6,152 nt of DNA. Origin: a virus (taxonomy: Duplodnaviria; Heunggongvirae; Uroviricota; Caudoviricetes). Positions 1-6,152 of the stretch are shown here, piece by piece. Both the position numbers and the translations under genes were made by a program. The stretch lies in the IMG/VR virus record IMGVR_UViG_2671181134_000013. One strand, written 5' to 3'. How positions within the stretch are numbered: position 1 is the stretch's first letter; each line of letters begins with the position of its first letter. Under the pieces are notes generated by a model. That model did no database searches, had not been told where the DNA came from, and saw nothing but the letters and a program-made list of their open reading frames with translations.

Positions 1-1218
1 ATGAACAAACTGAGCGATACCTTGCTAAGGAAACTTCATGGTAAGCCAGCGGAGAAAAACACGTTTTATAGTGATGGCGGAAACCTGAGCGTGAAATATT
101 TAACATCAGGGAAATTGACCTGGTATTTCACATACAGGGCCGGAACGGGAAGGGAGACACGACCCGAACGCATTAAGCTGGGAAGTTATCCTGATCTGAG
201 CCTGAAAGCAGCCAGGGAAAAAGCCGCACAGTGTCGCACATGGCTGGCTGAGGGGAAAAATCCACGTCATGAGATGAATTACACCGTACAGGAAGCGTTA
301 AAGCCCGTAACGGTTGGCGATGCGCTCACCTACTGGCTTGAGTATTACGTAAAGGAAAACCGCGTGGATTATATCGCCCTGAAAAGGCGACTTAATAATC
401 ACGTAATACAGCAGATTGGTGCTATGCCGCTGGATAAATGCGAGCTACGGCACTGGCTGGCCTGTTTTGACCAGGTGGCAAAGCGAACGCCTGTTACTGC
501 CGGATTCGTGCTACAGGCGTGCAAACAGGCGCTTAAGTTCTGCCGTAGGCGGCGCTATGCAATCAGCAACGTTCTGGACGATCTGAACGTGGCGGACGTT
601 GGGAAAAAACCGGATATAAGCGAACGTGTCTTAAGTAACAAAGAACTTGGCGAATTATTGCAGGCACTGGACAAAAAAATATTCTCCCCTTACTACGTCG
701 CGTTAATCCGCCTCCTGATTGTCTTCGGAGCCAGAACGGTAGAACTGAGGTTATCGGAGATCGGGGAGTGGGATTTTACGGAAATGCTATGGACCGTTCC
801 GAAGGAGCACAGCAAAACGAAGGTCGCAATATTCCGGCCCATACCGGAAGCGATCCTGCCGTTCGTCACGCAGCTGGTGGAGCAGAACAGGCACACGGGC
901 TTATTGCTGGGGGAAGTGAAACAGGAGGCCAGCGTATCGCAGTATGGAAGATTAGCGCACAGGAGGCTTAATCATCCTCACTGGTCACTACATGACATCC
1001 GGCGCACCTTTACAACGATGCTGAACGATTTAGGCGTGGATCCTCACGTCGTGGAGCAGCTTACAGGCCACCAGATGCCAGGAATGCAGCGAGTTTATAA
1101 TCATTCCCGTTATCTGGATGCTAAACGCAATGCGCTGGATATGTGGACGGAGCGGTTAGGGATACTGGCGGGAACACATGAAAACGTAACCACGCTACCA
1201 GTAGCCAGAAGAAAATAA
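1..1218 (+). CDS. int: Tyrosine-type site-specific recombinase (P4 / CP4-57-family integrase), 405 aa
   Basis: N-terminus (LSDTLLRKL..GKP....FYSDGGNLSVKY...GKLTWYFTYR...IKLGSYPDLSLKAAREKA) matches the arm-binding domain pattern of P4-type integrases; C-terminus carries the catalytic box HDIRRTF and the tyrosine-containing RVYNHSRYLDAKRNALDMW. ATG is at window position 1, so the promoter, upstream start alternatives and any att/tRNA site are not visible. Stop TAA at 1216-1218. Confidence 0.9.
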   Translation: MNKLSDTLLRKLHGKPAEKNTFYSDGGNLSVKYLTSGKLTWYFTYRAGTGRETRPERIKLGSYPDLSLKAAREKAAQCRTWLAEGKNPRHEMNYTVQEALKPVTVGDALTYWLEYYVKENRVDYIALKRRLNNHVIQQIGAMPLDKCELRHWLACFDQVAKRTPVTAGFVLQACKQALKFCRRRRYAISNVLDDLNVADVGKKPDISERVLSNKELGELLQALDKKIFSPYYVALIRLLIVFGARTVELRLSEIGEWDFTEMLWTVPKEHSKTKVAIFRPIPEAILPFVTQLVEQNRHTGLLLGEVKQEASVSQYGRLAHRRLNHPHWSLHDIRRTFTTMLNDLGVDPHVVEQLTGHQMPGMQRVYNHSRYLDAKRNALDMWTERLGILAGTHENVTTLPVARRK

Positions 1219-1260
1219 TTTTTTTCGTGTTTTTTCAGTATGCACATACTGGATATGCGA

Positions 1261-1320
1261 ACAGATACAACGTGCAACAATGAGCAACAATGTGGAACAA
1301 CCACGAACAAGAGGCGAAAA
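1261..1320. repeat. Five to six tandem 10-bp units each ending in ACAA (consensus G-N-A-A-C-A-A), exactly helically phased
   Basis: Consecutive 10-mers acagatACAA / cgtgcaACAA / tgagcaACAA / tgtggaACAA / ccacgaACAA / gaggcgAAAA; ACAA recurs at 1267, 1277, 1287, 1297, 1307. Lies 43 bp after the int stop in the int-alpA intergenic region. Confidence 0.55.
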
Positions 1321-1582
1321 AGTGTACGGATTTATAAGTAGCTGATTTTTAATGCGTTACTGGTTTTTTATACACTAGCGAATCACTCTTTAACGAGCGA
1401 GAAAAAAGGCATGAAACAATATTTTATGCCTTTGTATTAACATGAATTTAAAAGATTTTATTCTTACTGTTTCATTTTCTGTAAATCATACATCCTCAGT
1501 ATTTGCCATTCATCACTCTAGCGGGAACAATACGACACAATAAGACACCTGATGACTCTTTAAGAAACGAAAGGGGGCAATA

Positions 1583-1771
1583 GTGTTAAGCACTGATCGG
1601 TTTATACGTGAAAAAGAATGCGAAAAACTAACCGGCCTTAGCCGTACGTGTCGCTACCGCCTGGAAAAGGCCGGACAATTCCCATCACGTCGTAAACTTG
1701 GCGGTCGTTCCGTTGGCTGGTCTTTATCCGAGGTTCTGGCCTGGAAGGATAGCTGCAAGGCAGTTCATTAA
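1583..1771 (+). CDS. alpA: AlpA / Vis-family (Phage_AlpA, MerR-like HTH) transcriptional regulator or excisionase, 62 aa
   Basis: Translation RFIREKECEKLTGLSRTCRYRLEKAGQFPSRRKLGGRSVGWSLSEVLAW fits the AlpA signature (TGLSRst.Yrl...G.FP.p.klg.rsvgW...E...W). GTG start at 1583 preceded by AAGGGGG (1571-1577). Confidence 0.85.
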   Translation: MLSTDRFIREKECEKLTGLSRTCRYRLEKAGQFPSRRKLGGRSVGWSLSEVLAWKDSCKAVH

Positions 1772-1917
1772 TCACGCTGGCGGCACGCAGCCGCCACACA
1801 TCAATCATCTGAACACAGAGCTATAACCATGAAGATTGAATATACGCCAGAACGTAGGCGGGGATTCGTTCGCCCTGGTGAAACTGAAAAACAACAAAAT
1901 TGGGGTTTTTCAGGCAT

Positions 1918-1945
1918 AACAAAAAGCGCCCAGTTACCTGAGCGC
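1918..1945 (-). terminator. Candidate rho-independent terminator for the minus-strand cassette (weaker on the plus strand)
   Basis: Stem 1926-1933 / 1938-1945 (GCGCCCAG / CTGAGCGC) with loop TTAC. On the minus strand the single mismatch becomes a G-U wobble and the stem is followed by UUUUUGUU (plus A-run 1921-1925). On the plus strand it is followed only by CTTTG. Confidence 0.4.
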
Positions 1946-2148
1946 CTTTGTGAACGATTAACCTGCTGCGAAAAAATTGGATCAGTGCAGGGGAATTATA
2001 TCAACTGTGTGAAGAAGCGCCACTATTGCCGGATAACAGGCAAAGAAAAGGCCACCAGTCACGGTGGCCCTGCGACACAAATTTCGCGTTATCCCCAACG
2101 CATGAGCATCGCCAACAATGCCACATTTGCGGCTGGTGGGCAATGCTA

Positions 2149-2322
2149 TCAGTCTGGTTCAGTTCGTTGCCATACCTGCAATGAGCGCTTTTCCCTGTAC
2201 TCTTTAAGGAATTGCTCAAGGGCAAAAGCACATGGCGCGAATCTTTCTGATTCATGCTCTATCTTTCTGCGCCGTCTTTTCCGTGCCGGTGATAATGTTT
2301 TGGTCAATTCTTTATCGGTCAT
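2149..2322 (-). CDS. Hypothetical small basic protein (57 aa from second ATG; 62 aa if ATG at 2337)
   Basis: Minus-strand ORF MTDKELTKTLSPARKRRRRKIEHESERF...; AGGA lies 7 nt upstream of the ATG at 2322. Lies 58 nt downstream of the RHH-like gene on the same strand. No recognisable domain. Confidence 0.25.
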   Translation of the reverse strand: MTDKELTKTLSPARKRRRRKIEHESERFAPCAFALEQFLKEYREKRSLQVWQRTEPD

Positions 2323-2379
2323 TGTGTTGTCCTGCATAGCAATGCGCCGTAATACCTCACACCACGGCGCTGATAGTGA

Positions 2380-2559
2380 TTATTCTGATTCTTTGGCCTT
2401 GCGGCGCTGGCGGCGTTTGATCTCGCCTTCAAGTGCCGAAACGATAAATTGCCCTGTACTTTCGCCATCTTCCTTTAAATTTTCTACAGCATCAGCTATT
2501 GCGTGTGGTACTCGAGCCTCAAGCTTTTTGGATTTTGCATTAACTGCTTTTGTTGCCAT
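2380..2559 (-). CDS. Small ribbon-helix-helix (Arc/CopG/MetJ-like) DNA-binding protein, 59 aa; candidate repressor
   Basis: Internal ATG at 2559 of the 106-aa minus ORF has GAGGAAA 8 nt upstream. Product MATKAVNAKSKKLEARVPHAIADAVENLKEDGESTGQFIVSALEGEIKRRQRRKAKESE aligns by eye with Arc (FNLRWP-REVLDLVRKVAEENGRS-VNSEIYQRVMESFKK): beta-strand LEARVP, helix A, G-x-S turn, helix B. Divergent from the plus-strand operon. Confidence 0.55.
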   Translation of the reverse strand: MATKAVNAKSKKLEARVPHAIADAVENLKEDGESTGQFIVSALEGEIKRRQRRKAKESE

Positions 2560-2580
2560 ATCTGATTTCCTCGTTATTAG

Positions 2581-2662
2581 GTGGCTGACAGTATACACAC
2601 AAGAAAACGGAAAAACACTATTGACGTGGCTGACACCCGTTACTAATATAGTGGCTGACACC
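2581..2662. repeat. Three direct repeats GTGGCTGACA(CC) in the divergent control region; putative operator sites
   Basis: Exact 10-mer at 2581-2590, 2626-2635 and 2651-2660; copies 2 and 3 share the 12-mer GTGGCTGACACC. Copy 1 is 21 bp upstream of the RHH start, copy 2 overlaps the -35/spacer of the plus promoter, copy 3 sits just downstream of the -10. Confidence 0.5.
2621..2649 (+). promoter_or_regulatory. Sigma70-like promoter for the plus-strand operon (P4 PLE-like position)
   Basis: TTGACG (2621-2626), 17-bp spacer, TAATAT (2644-2649). Located about 100 bp upstream of the first operon ORF. Confidence 0.35.
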
Positions 2663-2690
2663 TTTATCAAGGTAATCGATGAAAAGACAA

Positions 2691-2723
2691 AGCCCCGCAA
2701 GTGTCGTTACCACTCGCAGGGCT
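2691..2723. other. 13-bp-arm imperfect inverted repeat (hairpin) in the operon leader
   Basis: AGCCCCGCAAGTG-tcgttac-CACTCGCAGGGCT; 11 of 13 Watson-Crick pairs on the plus-strand RNA. Both mismatches become G-U wobbles on the minus-strand RNA, giving a 13-bp stem. No U-tract follows on either strand. Confidence 0.4.
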
Positions 2724-2753
2724 TCTAACCAACAACGTAAACTAGGAGCCGTT

Positions 2754-2954
2754 ATGGTTGCTGTAAATCATATACCACACCTTGTACACACACAAACGGC
2801 CTTTGTGTGGCGTTTTCTGGCACTGAGTGCCGGAGAATCTCAAATCATCCACGTAACCGCCTGGACGGAACGCGAAGCGCGTAGCCGTTGCCCGTCCGGT
2901 TGTGTTGCTGTATTCGCCGCCCGTATTCGTCAGGAGGTGTGCCATGTGCAATAA
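2754..2954 (+). CDS. Small protein, 66 aa, tentatively Icd-like (P4 host cell-division inhibitor family)
   Basis: ATG at 2754 with AGGAG (2744-2748) 5 nt upstream. Motif FVWRFLALS....TAWTEREARSR....VFAARIR resembles, from memory, the F.W.F.A...ER.AR...FAAR pattern of Icd-like proteins. Alternative start ATG 2679 (91 aa) with a weaker AAGGT. The 3' end overlaps the next ORF by 11 nt. Confidence 0.45.
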   Translation: MVAVNHIPHLVHTQTAFVWRFLALSAGESQIIHVTAWTEREARSRCPSGCVAVFAARIRQEVCHVQ

Positions 2955-3165
2955 AACCACACCGGACGCAGCCGCCGCCGCACTCACTACGCTGATGCAC
3001 GCGCTTATTGATATTGAATGCACGGCAGAGCTTGCGCAGGGAGAAGAACAGAAAGACCGGACACAGTTCGCCCTGGAATGTATCAGATACACCGCCACGC
3101 GGTCGCTGAATGAGGCTAAAAATATTCTTATTGCTGATTGTGAAAATGGGGGGGGGTATGCGTGA
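2944..3165 (+). CDS. Hypothetical protein, 73 aa
   Basis: ATG at 2944 preceded by AGGAGG (2933-2938, 5-nt spacing). Last codons before the stop read through the G9 tract (GGG-GGG-GGG-TAT-GCG-TGA). No recognisable domain. Confidence 0.55.
   Translation: MCNKTTPDAAAAALTTLMHALIDIECTAELAQGEEQKDRTQFALECIRYTATRSLNEAKNILIADCENGGGYA
3148..3156. repeat. G9 homopolymer at the junction of two small ORFs
   Basis: Nine consecutive G at 3148-3156, inside the last codons of ORF 2944-3165 and immediately upstream of ATG 3158 of the next ORF. Confidence 0.9.
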
Positions 3166-3379
3166 TGATCGTTTTAATTCCCTGAAACAGGAATTTTCCG
3201 GCGTTCCTGATGATGCGGCTGATGCGCTTTCGTCAATATCTGAAATTATGCGGGTGGCTTTTTTCTTTCTTTGCACTGATGAGCACAGGGATACAGGGCT
3301 AAATATTCTTGATATTGCCGCTAACTATGCTGATTTCGTGACAGAAGTTGTTTTAAGAAAAACGACGGACGGGGATTAA
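3158..3379 (+). CDS. Hypothetical protein, 73 aa (77 aa if ATG 3146; frame open back to 3110)
   Basis: ATG 3158 directly follows the G-run, which could act as a Shine-Dalgarno. Overlaps the upstream stop (TGA 3163-3165) by 8 nt. No recognisable domain. Confidence 0.5.
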   Translation: MRDDRFNSLKQEFSGVPDDAADALSSISEIMRVAFFFLCTDEHRDTGLNILDIAANYADFVTEVVLRKTTDGD

Positions 3380-3380
3380 T

Positions 3381-3614
3381 ATGCGTGATATTTACCTTGA
3401 AACAATAGACCGCGCATTTCTTGCACTTTCTCACAGTGAAAACATGCTGGAAATATTGCGCATATGGCTTGACACGCTTGGAGATAATGAACGCGACAAA
3501 CAAAAATCAAGAATTGCCACGGCATTAATAACGCTACTTGAGCCTGTAATAATGGAACTGCAAAAAATAGATCTATTGCACGACAGATATAAAGAACAGC
3601 ACACCGGAGAATAA
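3381..3614 (+). CDS. Hypothetical protein, 77 aa
   Basis: ATG 3381 is 1 nt after the upstream stop; GGGGA at 3371-3375. No recognisable domain. Confidence 0.55.
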   Translation: MRDIYLETIDRAFLALSHSENMLEILRIWLDTLGDNERDKQKSRIATALITLLEPVIMELQKIDLLHDRYKEQHTGE

Positions 3615-3619
3615 AAATA

Positions 3620-3919
3620 ATGAAACTTAAATATTCTGGCTTAACTGCCAGTGGCAACACTCACCCTAAATTTACGCGCGGTGATATTTACCGCGACCAG
3701 TACGGCGGCACGGTAATGATTAAGGGCGTGGCGGGACGGTGCGTAACTTACCGCCGTGAAGGTTACGAATATGATTGCGTGATGCCTGTTTATCAGTTCC
3801 GGCGTGATTTTTCTCTGGTACAGACCGCGCCGCATAACGTGCCCACCAGCAACGCCAGGGCACGGGCAAACATCCAGAAGCTGAAAACAATGATTAACGG
3901 ATTCAGGGGTAAAAAATGA
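3620..3919 (+). CDS. Hypothetical protein, 99 aa
   Basis: ATG 3620 with GGAGA at 3606-3610. Its stop overlaps the primase start (ATGA at 3916-3919), indicating translational coupling. No recognisable domain. Confidence 0.6.
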   Translation: MKLKYSGLTASGNTHPKFTRGDIYRDQYGGTVMIKGVAGRCVTYRREGYEYDCVMPVYQFRRDFSLVQTAPHNVPTSNARARANIQKLKTMINGFRGKK

Positions 3920-5670
3920 AACTGGCACCGAACGTAAAACAGCAGTCACGCGGCATAAAACACAAAGAAACAGAAGTCATTATTTTTGCGGGTAGTGATG
4001 CCTGGTCACACGCAAAACAATGGCAGGAACATGACGCGCGTATGGCCGGAGATAATGAGCCTCCTGTGTGGCTTGGGGAGCAGCAGTTATCAGAACTGGA
4101 TAAGCTGCAAATTGTGCCGGAAGGCAGAAAATCCGTGCGCATATTCAGGGCCGGATATCTTGCGCCAGTAATGATAAAGGCGATTGGTCAGAAGCTGGCG
4201 GCGGCAGGCGTACAGGATGCAAATTTTTACCCTGATGGTATGCACGGTCAGAAGGTGGAGAACTGGCGCGAATATCTGGCCAGTGAGCGCCAGAATCTTT
4301 CTGATGGGCTGGTTATTGAGCTTCCTGTAAAGCAAAAGGCGCAACTTTCGCAGATGGCGGACAGTGAGCGCGCTCAACTTCTTGCCGGACGATTTGATGG
4401 CGTTTGCGTGCATCCTGAAAGTGAAATCGTTCACGTATGGCGCGGCGGGGTATGGTGTCCGGTCAGCACAATGGAACTTAGCCGCGAAATGGTGGCGATC
4501 TATTCAGAGCACAGGGCCACTTTCAGCAAGCGCGTAATCAATAACGCCGTGGAAGCGTTAAAAGTTATTGCCGAACCAATGGGCGAGCCGTCCGGCGATT
4601 TGCTGCCGTTCGCCAATGGTGCGCTTGACCTGAAAACGGGGGAATTTTCCCCGCACACGCCGGAGAACTGGATCACCACGCACAACGGCATTGAGTACAC
4701 GCCACCAGCACCAGGGGAGAACATCCGCGATAACGCGCCAAACTTTCATAAATGGCTTGAGCACGCAGCCGGAAAAGACCCGCGCAAGATGATGCGTATA
4801 TGTGCCGCGCTGTACATGATTATAGCGAACCGGTACGACTGGCAGATGTTTATTGAGGCCACCGGAGATGGCGGGAGCGGTAAAAGTACATTCACGCACA
4901 TAGCCAGCCTTCTGGCAGGGAAACAGAACACGGTAAGCGCTGAAATGACGTCGCTTGATGATGCTGGTGGACGTGCGCAGGTTGTCGGGAGTCGTCTTAT
5001 CGTCCTGGCTGACCAGCCGAAATATACAGGCGAAGGAACGGGCATCAAGAAAATCACGGGCGGTGACCCCGTGGAAATTAACCCGAAATACGAAAAGCGT
5101 TTCACGGCTGTAATCAGGGCGGTGGTGCTGGCGACCAACAATAACCCGATGATATTCACCGAACGGGCCGGAGGTGTGGCACGTCGTCGCGTGATTTTCC
5201 GTTTCGACAATATCGTCAGTGAGGCCGAAAAAGACAGGGAGCTACCGGAAAAGATTGCGGCTGAAATCCCTGTCATTATCCGCCGATTGCTGGCGAACTT
5301 TACCGACTCTGAGAAAGCACGGGCTTTACTACTGGAACAGCGTGACGGTGATGAAGCTCTGGCAATAAAGCAACAGACGGATCCGGTTATTGAGTTTTGC
5401 CAGTTCCTGAATTTTCTGGAGGAAGCACGCGGCCTGATGATGGGCGGCGGTGGCGATTCAGTGAAGTACACGACCAGAAACAGCCTTTACCGCGTCTATC
5501 TGGCGTTTATGGCGTACGCAGGCAGGAGCAAACCGCTAAACGTAAATGACTTTGGCAAGGCTATGAAGCCAGCCGCGAAAGTTTACGGACATGAATATAT
5601 TACGCGGAAAGTTAAGGGAGTAACGCAGACTAACGCAATAACAACAGACGAGTGCGACGCGTTTTTATAA
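3916..5670 (+). CDS. Replication initiation protein: P4 alpha-like primase-helicase (D5_N / primase-C-terminal region plus SF3-type NTPase), 584 aa
   Basis: Walker A GDGGSGKST (about 4864-4890), Walker B-like hydrophobic strand LIVLADQ (about 4996-5016), and upstream PFANGALDLKTGEF...HTPENWITT typical of the D5_N/P4-primase C-terminal family. GGGG Shine-Dalgarno 6 nt before the ATG. The N-terminal 300 aa has no CxxC zinc motif that I can see. Confidence 0.88.
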   Translation: MKLAPNVKQQSRGIKHKETEVIIFAGSDAWSHAKQWQEHDARMAGDNEPPVWLGEQQLSELDKLQIVPEGRKSVRIFRAGYLAPVMIKAIGQKLAAAGVQDANFYPDGMHGQKVENWREYLASERQNLSDGLVIELPVKQKAQLSQMADSERAQLLAGRFDGVCVHPESEIVHVWRGGVWCPVSTMELSREMVAIYSEHRATFSKRVINNAVEALKVIAEPMGEPSGDLLPFANGALDLKTGEFSPHTPENWITTHNGIEYTPPAPGENIRDNAPNFHKWLEHAAGKDPRKMMRICAALYMIIANRYDWQMFIEATGDGGSGKSTFTHIASLLAGKQNTVSAEMTSLDDAGGRAQVVGSRLIVLADQPKYTGEGTGIKKITGGDPVEINPKYEKRFTAVIRAVVLATNNNPMIFTERAGGVARRRVIFRFDNIVSEAEKDRELPEKIAAEIPVIIRRLLANFTDSEKARALLLEQRDGDEALAIKQQTDPVIEFCQFLNFLEEARGLMMGGGGDSVKYTTRNSLYRVYLAFMAYAGRSKPLNVNDFGKAMKPAAKVYGHEYITRKVKGVTQTNAITTDECDAFL

Positions 5671-5683
5671 TTTTTTGTAATTG

Positions 5684-5910
5684 CTGTCTACCCTGTCTAC
5701 CTGAATAAAGAAAGATACATTTAATTCAGTGCATTAAGTTAGGTAGATAGCCTTTTTTTACTGTCTACCCACTATCTACCCTCTCTACCTGATTTTACCT
5801 GAATCAGACAGGGAGGTAGACACGGGGTAGATAGCGGATAAAAGCACTCTACCCCGCTGAAAGCCGCGCCATTACTGGCATGAGGGCCACTAAGGTAGAT
5901 AAGGTAGACA
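5684..5910. repeat. Iteron array, putative origin of replication: 11 copies of octamer T(G/A)TCTACC in both orientations around an AT-rich spacer
   Basis: Forward copies at 5685, 5694, 5762, 5773 (TATCTACC), 5782 (TCTCTACC) and 5848 (core TCTACC). Reverse copies GGTAGA(C/T)A at 5742, 5815, 5826, 5894, 5903. AT-rich segment 5703-5740. Lies immediately 3' of the primase-helicase gene. Confidence 0.6.
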
Positions 5911-5958
5911 AGGGGAGGCACAACTCAAAACTTTTTAAACGAGGGGGTAAAAATAAAT

Positions 5959-6152
5959 ATGCACACTTCAGGGAAATTTAATAAATCACTCAAAAAACGC
6001 AGAGACAGAACAGAACCGAAATATCGCGCGTTAGACATGACAGAGCACGCTTTAAAGGTGGCAATCAGAACGATAGACCGCCACGCGGGGGAAGGATACG
6101 CGAAAGCACATCCCGAACTGATAAGCGCATTCATGACCACGACGGCGGCAAA
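5959..6152 (+). CDS. Hypothetical protein, 5' part only (runs off the window end)
   Basis: ATG 5959 with GAGGGGG at 5941-5947 (11-nt spacing, slightly long). Frame is open to the last base; translation starts MHTSGKFNKSLKKRRDRTEPKYRALDMTEHALKVAIRTIDRHAGEGYAKAHPELISAF. Absent from the supplied ORF track, presumably because it has no stop. Confidence 0.4.
   Translation, partial: MHTSGKFNKSLKKRRDRTEPKYRALDMTEHALKVAIRTIDRHAGEGYAKAHPELISAFMTTTAA

Follow-up and report, generated by a model that had tools for sequence, protein, structure and literature searches.

Small genes between the regulatory region and the replicase of an EcCICFT073-type phage-inducible chromosomal island: a probable early operon with a bipartite ORF2/ORF3 unit

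The DNA analysed here is a stretch of 6,152 nucleotides (nt) from the IMG/VR virus record IMGVR_UViG_2671181134_000013, referred to as the window throughout, and it carries five small, tightly packed open reading frames (ORF1 to ORF5) directly upstream of a replicase gene. Sequence comparison identifies the element as a phage-inducible chromosomal island (PICI) of the EcCICFT073 type that is very close to EcCICFT073 itself. We consider it fairly likely that the five ORFs constitute an early, translationally coupled PICI operon of small effectors placed between the regulatory region and the replicase. The element, the operon, the Icd-like gene and RgdR are already known, and the window is another copy of a well-known Escherichia coli satellite operon; within this mostly known system, we found no earlier description of ORF2/ORF3 as a bipartite unit or of the variable poly-G tract at their junction.

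Layout of the operon and reality of its genes

All five ORFs reside on the plus strand. ORF1 (2754–2954, 66 amino acids (aa), Icd-like) is overlapped over 11 nt by ORF2 (2944–3165, 73 aa), which shares 8 nt (ATGCGTGA) with ORF3 (3158–3379, 73 aa, with an ATG of its own). ORF4 (3381–3614, 77 aa) follows after a gap of 1 nt and ORF5 (3620–3919, 99 aa) after a gap of 5 nt, and the replicase gene (3916–5670, plus strand, 584 aa) overlaps ORF5 by an ATGA and is the last member of the coupled block. An earlier reading of the window made without database searches, the sequence-only reading, had described five coupled ORFs of 66–99 aa, and the coordinates, the overlaps, the 1- and 5-nt gaps and the ATGA at 3916 are all seen. 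It had also credited each ORF with its own Shine–Dalgarno sequence, which is borne out for four of the five: purine-rich motifs of this kind are located 5–9 nt upstream of the starts of ORF1 (AGGAG, 2744–2748), ORF2 (AGGAGG, 2932–2937), ORF4 (GGGGA, 3371–3375) and ORF5 (GGAGA, 3606–3610), whereas ORF3 has nothing but a run of nine G (3148–3156). The replicase gene is preceded by AGGGG (3905–3909).

The five ORFs are real, conserved coding genes, as had been proposed. This conclusion derives from their polymorphism, their synteny, their distribution and their annotation. The pooled ratio of non-synonymous to synonymous polymorphism (pN/pS) lies between 0.32 and 0.38 for each of the five ORFs (25–50 distinct alleles; ORF1 0.34, ORF2 0.38, ORF3 0.33, ORF4 0.37), indicative of purifying selection. 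Nearly all of the approximately 80 related loci that were fetched show the order ORF1-ORF2-ORF3-ORF4-ORF5-rep, the exceptions being a few that are without one ORF or are truncated by contig ends; a search of 5426 complete E. coli genomes matched the region in 1514 of them, and the RefSeq annotation of relatives includes the same genes. A scan of species-representative genomes returned one Shigella flexneri locus only, within the limits set by the peptide patterns used.

The view that almost all of the ORFs are without recognisable domains and that the last four are unassignable has to be revised in part. All five match PHROG families, and ORF5 carries the DUF4222 domain and corresponds to RgdR; for ORF2 to ORF4, which match neither Pfam nor NCBIfam, the view holds and no function is assignable. 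The sequence-only reading had pointed to helper interference or anti-phage defence as possible roles of such genes; none of the PADLOC defence-system models identified a family for ORF1 to ORF5 at E values of up to 1. Among 50,697 phage records searched directly, ORF1 has a single weak match (a 16.5-kb cf-PICI-like record), ORF5 one weak match (a record of 8.6 kb) and ORF2/ORF3 none, and the operon genes ORF1, ORF2/ORF3 and ORF5 were not found in sequenced phage genomes beyond these two satellite-sized records. Two entries deposited in phage collections look satellite-like. LR881103.1 (vB_KppS-Ant, 16.5 kb, L087) encodes an integrase, a P4-type replicase, capsid, portal and terminase, together with a 324-aa protein that has a C-terminal Icd-like domain; PV189483.1 (8.6 kb, Klebsiella, deposited as a phage) has a DUF4222 homologue aboard.

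An EcCICFT073-type island and its relation to P4

The window opens with a tyrosine integrase gene (1–1218; Pfam Phage_integrase and Arm-DNA-bind_3) at one end of the element, adjoined in the same orientation by an AlpA-family regulator gene (1583–1771; PF05930, 5e-17). Two small minus-strand genes, one of them of the YlcI/YnfO family, separate these from the five-ORF operon. Islands of this kind measure about 10–15 kb, possess a packaging or redirecting module but neither tail nor lysis genes, and are induced by a helper phage (PMC6092414); the window stops at 6152, and the assignment to the PICIs covers the part from the integrase to the putative origin. Gene order is shared with EcCICFT073, the prototypical E. 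coli PICI, whose early operon resides at NC_004431 ~1380852–1383995 (locus L089 here). The identities amount to 92% for the integrase, 94% for AlpA and 98.8% for the replicase, and within the operon to 96% for ORF2, 78% for ORF3, 86% for ORF4 and 91% for ORF5. Both operons run in the order Icd-like gene, ORF2, ORF3, ORF4, DUF4222/RgdR and 584-aa replicase, and in both ORF2 and ORF3 are split with the identical 8-nt overlap. In contrast to the window, the Icd-like gene and ORF2 of EcCICFT073 are separated by an additional gene of 76 aa, the EcCICFT073 alleles of the Icd-like gene (46% identity to the window) and of YlcI (66%) have diverged, and the poly-G tract there reads G8+TT where the window has G9+T, with frame and protein unchanged. 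L089 and two other relatives (L001 and L002) span approximately 11–12 kb and include capsid or small-terminase genes; relatives other than EcCICFT073 possess capsid, head-decoration and small-terminase genes, and relatives are positioned in chromosomal attachment sites.

The sequence-only reading had taken satellite P4 as its frame of reference and had placed the five ORFs in the positions of kil/icd, eta, epsilon and orf151, so that they would be counterparts of these genes, with the host and a P2-type helper as their targets. There is a resemblance in architecture: the left operon of P4 (cI region, epsilon, orf151, orf106, alpha) likewise has small ORFs in the same place upstream of an alpha-related replicase, and P4 is a satellite with an AlpA/Vis-type regulator, its ORF88/Vis being similar to the AlpA of the window. 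A tblastn search against the whole P4 genome (NC_001609) does recover AlpA (to ORF88, 8e-14), the replicase (to alpha, 2e-105) and the integrase, but none of the five ORFs is similar to any P4 frame (best E = 0.086), which contradicts the proposed equivalence at the level of homology; the comparison concerns early genes, as the window is without the late region and sid, delta and psu lie outside its scope. An Rfam search of the whole window at E values of up to 1 yielded no family, C4/CI-type immunity RNAs included. The element family and the type of helper differ as well: Int, AlpA and Pri-Rep are the sole, distant P4 homologues in E. coli PICIs, and the relatives of the window have lambdoid phages as helpers and capsid and terminase genes of lambdoid type (PMC6092414). 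The P4 frame was abandoned in favour of an EcCICFT073-type PICI, and we regard a correspondence of the five ORFs to the P4 genes as highly improbable.

ORF5 is an RgdR orthologue coupled to the replicase

The firmest assignment within the operon is that of ORF5. It matches Pfam DUF4222 (PF13973) over all 53 model positions (2.1e-23, 82.1 bits against 27) and is 78% identical to ECs1581 (RgdR) and 91% identical to C1493 of CFT073, without gaps over 99 of 99 residues; judged by these similarities it is an orthologue of RgdR. The protein is basic (isoelectric point (pI) 10.2), with an RGD motif at residues 20–22 and a lysine at position 35. Among the ORF5 homologues in the fetched loci (n = 78) the RGD motif is kept in 76, and K35 and the ATGA junction with the replicase gene in all 78. 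The RgdR of Sakai Sp7 (O-island 51, CP-933C), which lies in the same kind of island as the window, shares the length of 99 aa, the RGD at 20–22, K35 and the ATGA onto the replicase; unlike ECs1581, ORF5 has A10 and R45, as do the CFT073 and ED1a variants.

RgdR is an activator of the LEE1 promoter and of type III secretion and a repressor of motility, and it increases Congo-red binding; in an electrophoretic mobility-shift assay its binding to DNA in vitro is without specificity, its activity is tuned by K35 and by R20, which is part of the RGD motif, and C1493 of CFT073 is active as RgdR too (PMC3378721). To us, this set of phenotypes (LEE up, motility down, Congo-red binding up) looks similar to that of an hns mutant. 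Every E. coli PICI analysed encodes RgdR (PMC6092414), whose mechanism was still given as unknown in a review of 2024 (PMC10877973). An AlphaFold2 (AF2) model of ORF5 (pLDDT ~90 for residues 20–70) predicts an SH3/Tudor/KOW-like barrel with a C-terminal helix. A fold search with it returned only generic SH3/Tudor/KOW matches with Z scores of at most 7.3, and the viral matches are to uncharacterised or DUF1653 proteins; the search was dismissed as a pointer to the mechanism of ORF5, since matches so weak and generic support no specific one. A profile search against the sequences in the Protein Data Bank (PDB) gave no match.

These properties also accommodate a different role, in which RgdR, and perhaps ORF2 to ORF4, form an accessory module that assists the replicase in origin binding, loading or priming, with effects on the host being secondary. 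It is the main rival to an operon of effectors, and the invariable coupling of RgdR to the replicase speaks for it; moreover, ORF5 precedes both the 'primase' and the 'RepA helicase' type of replicase, which share their first ~125 residues, its DNA binding is non-specific (PMC3378721), and its closest compact structural matches include the Tudor domains of the helicases UvrD and PcrA. Such matches are weak, however, and the fold is a generic one, and nothing ties the acidic ORF2 to ORF4 to DNA. Deletion of rgdR in the uninduced, integrated state alters type III secretion and motility, an effect that R20 tunes (PMC3378721). On balance we think a dedicated replication module unlikely, and continue to favour small effectors encoded alongside the replicase.

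A sigma-70-like site is found within ORF4 (3525–3553: TTAATA, 17 nt, AATAAT, with an upstream TG), approximately 65 nt before ORF5, and a similar internal promoter-like motif occurs in 59 of the 78 loci. Such an internal promoter could account for the effects of RgdR on the host while the island is uninduced (PMC3378721).

ORF1 belongs to the Icd-like family

ORF1 had been assigned tentatively as Icd-like, and this is now supported by a family-level match. It passes the NCBIfam model NF033153 (Icd-like) with 6e-18 and 64.6 bits against a cut-off of 25, over residues 17–60, and matches the PHROG families phrog_29966, phrog_1743 and phrog_6196; with ECs_1577 from Sp7, an island of O157 Sakai, it shares 98% identity. 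By sequence, ORF1 belongs to the Icd-like family, with division inhibition attached to it only as the family label. Icd of the phage P1 immI operon resembles ORF1 in being the first small ORF of an operon and in overlapping the next gene. In contrast to P1, the downstream genes are unrelated to ant, the similarity of the two proteins exists only at profile level, and Rfam identifies no c4-type antisense RNA upstream of ORF1.

One unit with two modules: ORF2 and ORF3

The sequence-only reading had listed ORF2 and ORF3 as two ORFs. They are real and coupled, but rather than independent genes they are the two halves of a unit that is often fused. Both align to the single PHROG family phrog_2512 (154 positions), of which ORF2 covers positions 1–76 and ORF3 positions 78–146; ORF3 also matches phrog_24341. 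Fused homologues of 144 aa (..ENGGVMRDD..) or 145 aa (..ENGGGVMRDD..) exist on hundreds of contigs, the individual fused proteins being found on 258 (P0006), 152 (P0007) and 212 (P0019) of them. A search with the joined ORF2-ORF3 sequence returned 433 relatives, and all of the named ones among the 120 listed belong to E. coli, whereas an ORF2-3 profile run against 1.84 billion representative proteins met only 52 clusters. In the more distant clusters the N half and the C half are separate proteins without any G tract, and the distant N halves end in ..HA* or ..YA*, the product expected from the xATGCGTGA overlap that is seen in the window. Free-standing homologues of ORF3 occur in nature (P0385, P0392, P0402), as do other fusions, namely of an Icd-like domain to the N half (P0397) and of a different domain to the C half (P0376). 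In nearly all split alleles the ATG and the full length of ORF3 are preserved.

These alignments identify ORF2 and ORF3 as two modules of one unit that exists either as two overlapping genes or as one fusion. Because both ORFs are intact in split alleles and distant relatives have separate halves without a G tract, the two-gene form of the window and of CFT073 is probably the ancestral, functional arrangement and not a pseudogene. By Rosetta-stone reasoning ORF2 and ORF3 most likely function together in a complex, and this would account for the tolerance of covalent fusions. Both proteins are acidic (pI 4.6 for ORF2, 4.3 for ORF3) and without a Pfam, NCBIfam or PADLOC match, and a PDB profile search reached E = 1.3 at best. 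Structure prediction of the fusion, proposed as a check in the sequence-only reading, was informative in part. ORF2 is predicted as a helical hairpin (helices 9–31 and 37–67, pLDDT ~72); the AF2 model of the whole fusion (49 sequences) is all-helical and poor, with a mean pLDDT of 55.7 and a C half below 50.

ORF2, ORF3 and ORF4 were also considered as paralogous repeats and rejected as such: BLASTP gave no match, hhalign assigned ORF3 and ORF4 a probability of 13.5%, and the comparison of ORF2 with ORF3 or ORF4 stayed below 1%. ORF3 (3158–3166) and ORF4 (3381–3389) do share the start ATGCGTGAT (MRD...), and in P0373, a chimera that occurs naturally, the first ~50 residues of an ORF3-type protein are followed in register by the last ~27 of an ORF4-type protein; the shared starts may serve as recombination points for the shuffling of modules. 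The extra 76-aa gene before ORF2 (MSQEITLQQ...) is present in CFT073 (L089, junction at 4245–4290) and in 16 other loci, and its junction holds a run of eight A in 16 of the 17 loci and of seven in the remaining one (L049). Two proteins of 217–221 aa (P0053, P0092) join the 76-aa domain to ORF2-ORF3, as a run one base shorter predicts. The A8 run would place another homopolymer at the boundary between two modules, although its length varies far less than that of the G tract.

A poly-G tract sets the fused and the split form

The junction of ORF2 and ORF3 consists of GATTGTGAAAAT-G(n)-TTATGCGTGATGA, in which n varies from 7 to 11 between near-identical elements; the flanks are invariant even at 58–70% protein identity. 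The G9 run of the window (3148–3156, plus strand) is the only one of its length where 0.02 would be expected by chance, and doubles as the only Shine–Dalgarno-like sequence of ORF3. Lengths of G7 and G10 give the fused frame, and G8, G9 and G11 the split one. The G9+T of the window reads as G8+TT, so that ORF2 ends in ..ENGGGYA* and overlaps the ATG of ORF3 by 8 nt. A census with queries of 55–58 nt, from which 239 matches to the right flank alone (partial alignments of 100% identity) were subtracted, counted approximately 358 G7, 179 G8, 167 G9 and 20 G10 tracts among the 650 complete genomes with a full-length match, the G7 class being inflated by clonal O157:H7 genomes. Six of the ten haplotypes with identical flanks of 215 nt show more than one tract length, and two assemblies of strain 97-3250 are identical over 2.2 kb except for G9 versus G10. 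G7 looks stable across the O157:H7 genomes sampled. As far as the assembled sequences tell, near-identical elements differ in form, fused or split, through changes in tract length.

Might the split simply reflect damage or an artefact, the true gene encoding a fusion of 144–145 aa and the window being frameshifted or miscalled? The abundance of fused forms, the fact that G7 is the commonest exact allele and the single difference between the two 97-3250 assemblies, just as a homopolymer miscall would produce, speak for such an explanation. Yet the lead of G7 is swollen by clonality, and the G8 and G9 alleles are anything but rare and include that of the reference genome CFT073. Two entries that we take to be of the ATCC 25922 lineage are both G8. 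A typical miscall would not amount to the three bases that separate G7 from G10, ORF3 is maintained under a pN/pS of 0.33 with its start and length preserved, and distant relatives that have no tract at all also have separate halves with the same ..HA*/..YA* endings. We judge damage or artefact unlikely for these reasons, and retain the two overlapping genes as the probable functional form.

Programmed recoding is a further alternative, whereby the G run is slippery for ribosomes or RNA polymerase and split alleles still yield a set proportion of the fusion, as might be imagined by analogy to the transposases of insertion sequences and to phage tail-chaperone genes. A run of 8–9 G would allow tRNA-Gly to re-pair in either direction, and the invariance of tract and flanks among diverged proteins is what a recoding site would display; the conserved peptide ADCENGG-MRDDRFNSLKQEF explains the conservation of the flanks as well. 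G8 would need a shift of +1 and G9 one of −1, and therefore no single programmed event fits both. The 80 nt downstream fold like shuffled sequences (z = −0.01), and recoding is unnecessary when in-frame alleles are present in about half of the genomes. Recoding appears very unlikely to us.

The tract could finally be a true contingency switch within a satellite, which retains an acidic effector both as a fusion and in two pieces as a form of bet-hedging, and in which the G7/G10 and G8/G9 forms would act differently on helper phages or the host. As in the contingency loci of Neisseria, Campylobacter and Bordetella, a run of at least seven G is situated at a frame junction and its length alleles change the product. 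In contrast to those loci, slippage in the window would toggle between fused and separate products with both ORFs intact, and the gene is not turned off. We know of few homopolymer switches in E. coli, and a true switch is a possibility to which we give little credence. The literature that we searched contains no description of the tract.

ORF4 and the variable block between the Icd-like gene and RgdR

ORF4 is an acidic protein (pI 5.1) that matches phrog_2196 (1.5e-40) and has 521 homologues, all from E. coli among the named matches listed. It has no Pfam, NCBIfam or PADLOC match, and a PDB profile search gave E = 0.19 at best. A large proportion of E. coli genomes carry ORF2 to ORF4, among them those of CFT073 and, going by strain names, of Nissle 1917 and presumably ATCC 25922; the EcCICFT073 and cf-PICI literature searched holds no functional data for them. 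Sakai Sp7 differs from the window in that other small ORFs (ECs_1578–1580) lie between its Icd-like gene and RgdR; ORF2/ORF3 are absent, and ORF4 is only distantly related to ECs_1580 (27% identity). With ORF2/ORF3 replaced in Sp7, the block from the Icd-like gene to RgdR is therefore best described as a variable array of small proteins.

The control region upstream of ORF1

A predicted control region (2581–2660, plus strand) lies between the divergent YlcI/YnfO-family gene (2380–2559, minus strand) and ORF1. It includes a sigma-70-like promoter found by a promoter scan (2621–2649: TTGACG, 17 nt, TAATAT), flanked and overlapped by three direct GTGGCTGACA boxes (2581–2590, 2626–2635 and 2651–2660). 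The full set of three boxes is confined to loci with the same YlcI allele (98–100% identical), whatever the allele of ORF1, and in L049, where the YlcI allele is very different, three TGTGCGCACA boxes take their place. That the set of boxes tracks the YlcI allele suggests that the YlcI-like ribbon–helix–helix protein is an allele-specific repressor of the operon, and 2581–2660 is probably the operon control region.

Just before the ribosome-binding site of ORF1 the leader contains a GC-rich hairpin of 12–15 bp (2689–2725). On the minus strand it scores as a terminator with a T run, and about 20 loci that differ in their YlcI allele share it; its stability is no better than that of shuffled sequences (z = −0.72), and it has no Rfam match. 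A plus-strand ORF of 299 aa (1829–2728) overlaps both minus-strand genes, of which that at 2380–2559 belongs to the YlcI/YnfO family (NCBIfam, 1e-16) and that at 2149–2337 matches phrog_21027. The original Sakai annotation lists the plus-strand homologue (ECs_1576), RefSeq the minus-strand genes in CFT073; the 299-aa ORF is probably spurious.

The replicase and a candidate origin

The replicase is annotated as a 'DNA primase family protein' and matches Pfam D5_N, DUF5906 and Pox_D5, a combination of D5_N and a P-loop helicase. Its residues 141–579 align to P4 alpha, within the helicase and C-terminal part of the latter. Pfam detects no primase catalytic domain in the protein, and given that the resemblance to alpha is limited to residues 141–579 the label 'primase' may be a misnomer. 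The same block of small ORFs precedes either a 'primase'-type or a 'RepA helicase'-type replicase, and residues 1–125 (3916–4290) are 60–66% identical to the 'helicase RepA family' replicases of other islands. Repeats of GTCTACC / GGTAGA(T/C)A are present in many copies and both orientations just 3′ of the replicase gene (5680–5920), and this is probably the iteron origin of the island.

A model for the operon and its implications

The activation of PICIs by a helper acts through AlpA (PMC6092414). In the model that we favour, a helper phage would trigger AlpA and the operon would then be transcribed from the promoter at ~2621–2649, probably under the additional control of the divergent YlcI-family protein, to supply small effectors together with the replicase. 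The basic DNA-binding RgdR would reprogramme host transcription and the Icd-like ORF1 would act as a division inhibitor, and the acidic ORF2 to ORF4, of which ORF2 and ORF3 are predicted to be helical, would most likely bind host or helper proteins.

Several observations weigh against this model. To our knowledge division inhibition has been shown solely for phage P1 Icd, and a direct tblastn search with ORF1 did not reach that protein. The invariable ATGA junction of ORF5 with the replicase gene fits a replication accessory equally well. The model of the ORF2-ORF3 fusion is of the low quality described above, and alleles of the N half and the C half reassort freely among loci, so that there is no co-variation signal for a specific contact between ORF2 and ORF3. 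Some of the differences in tract length could also be homopolymer sequencing errors, and the alternation of fused and split forms may be adaptive or neutral.

Whether ORF2/ORF3 is annotated as one or as two 'hypothetical proteins' hinges on a single G. The view of a bipartite unit removes this inconsistency and predicts that the two halves act jointly. The proteins in question are widespread, ORF2 to ORF4 being common in E. coli, while ORF2/ORF3 is without a homologue in the sequenced phages. If the tract switches in culture, it would provide a simple example of phase variation inside a phage satellite. The position of RgdR in the core operon, coupled to the replicase, suggests that what it does to virulence and motility is a by-product of some function in the satellite cycle.

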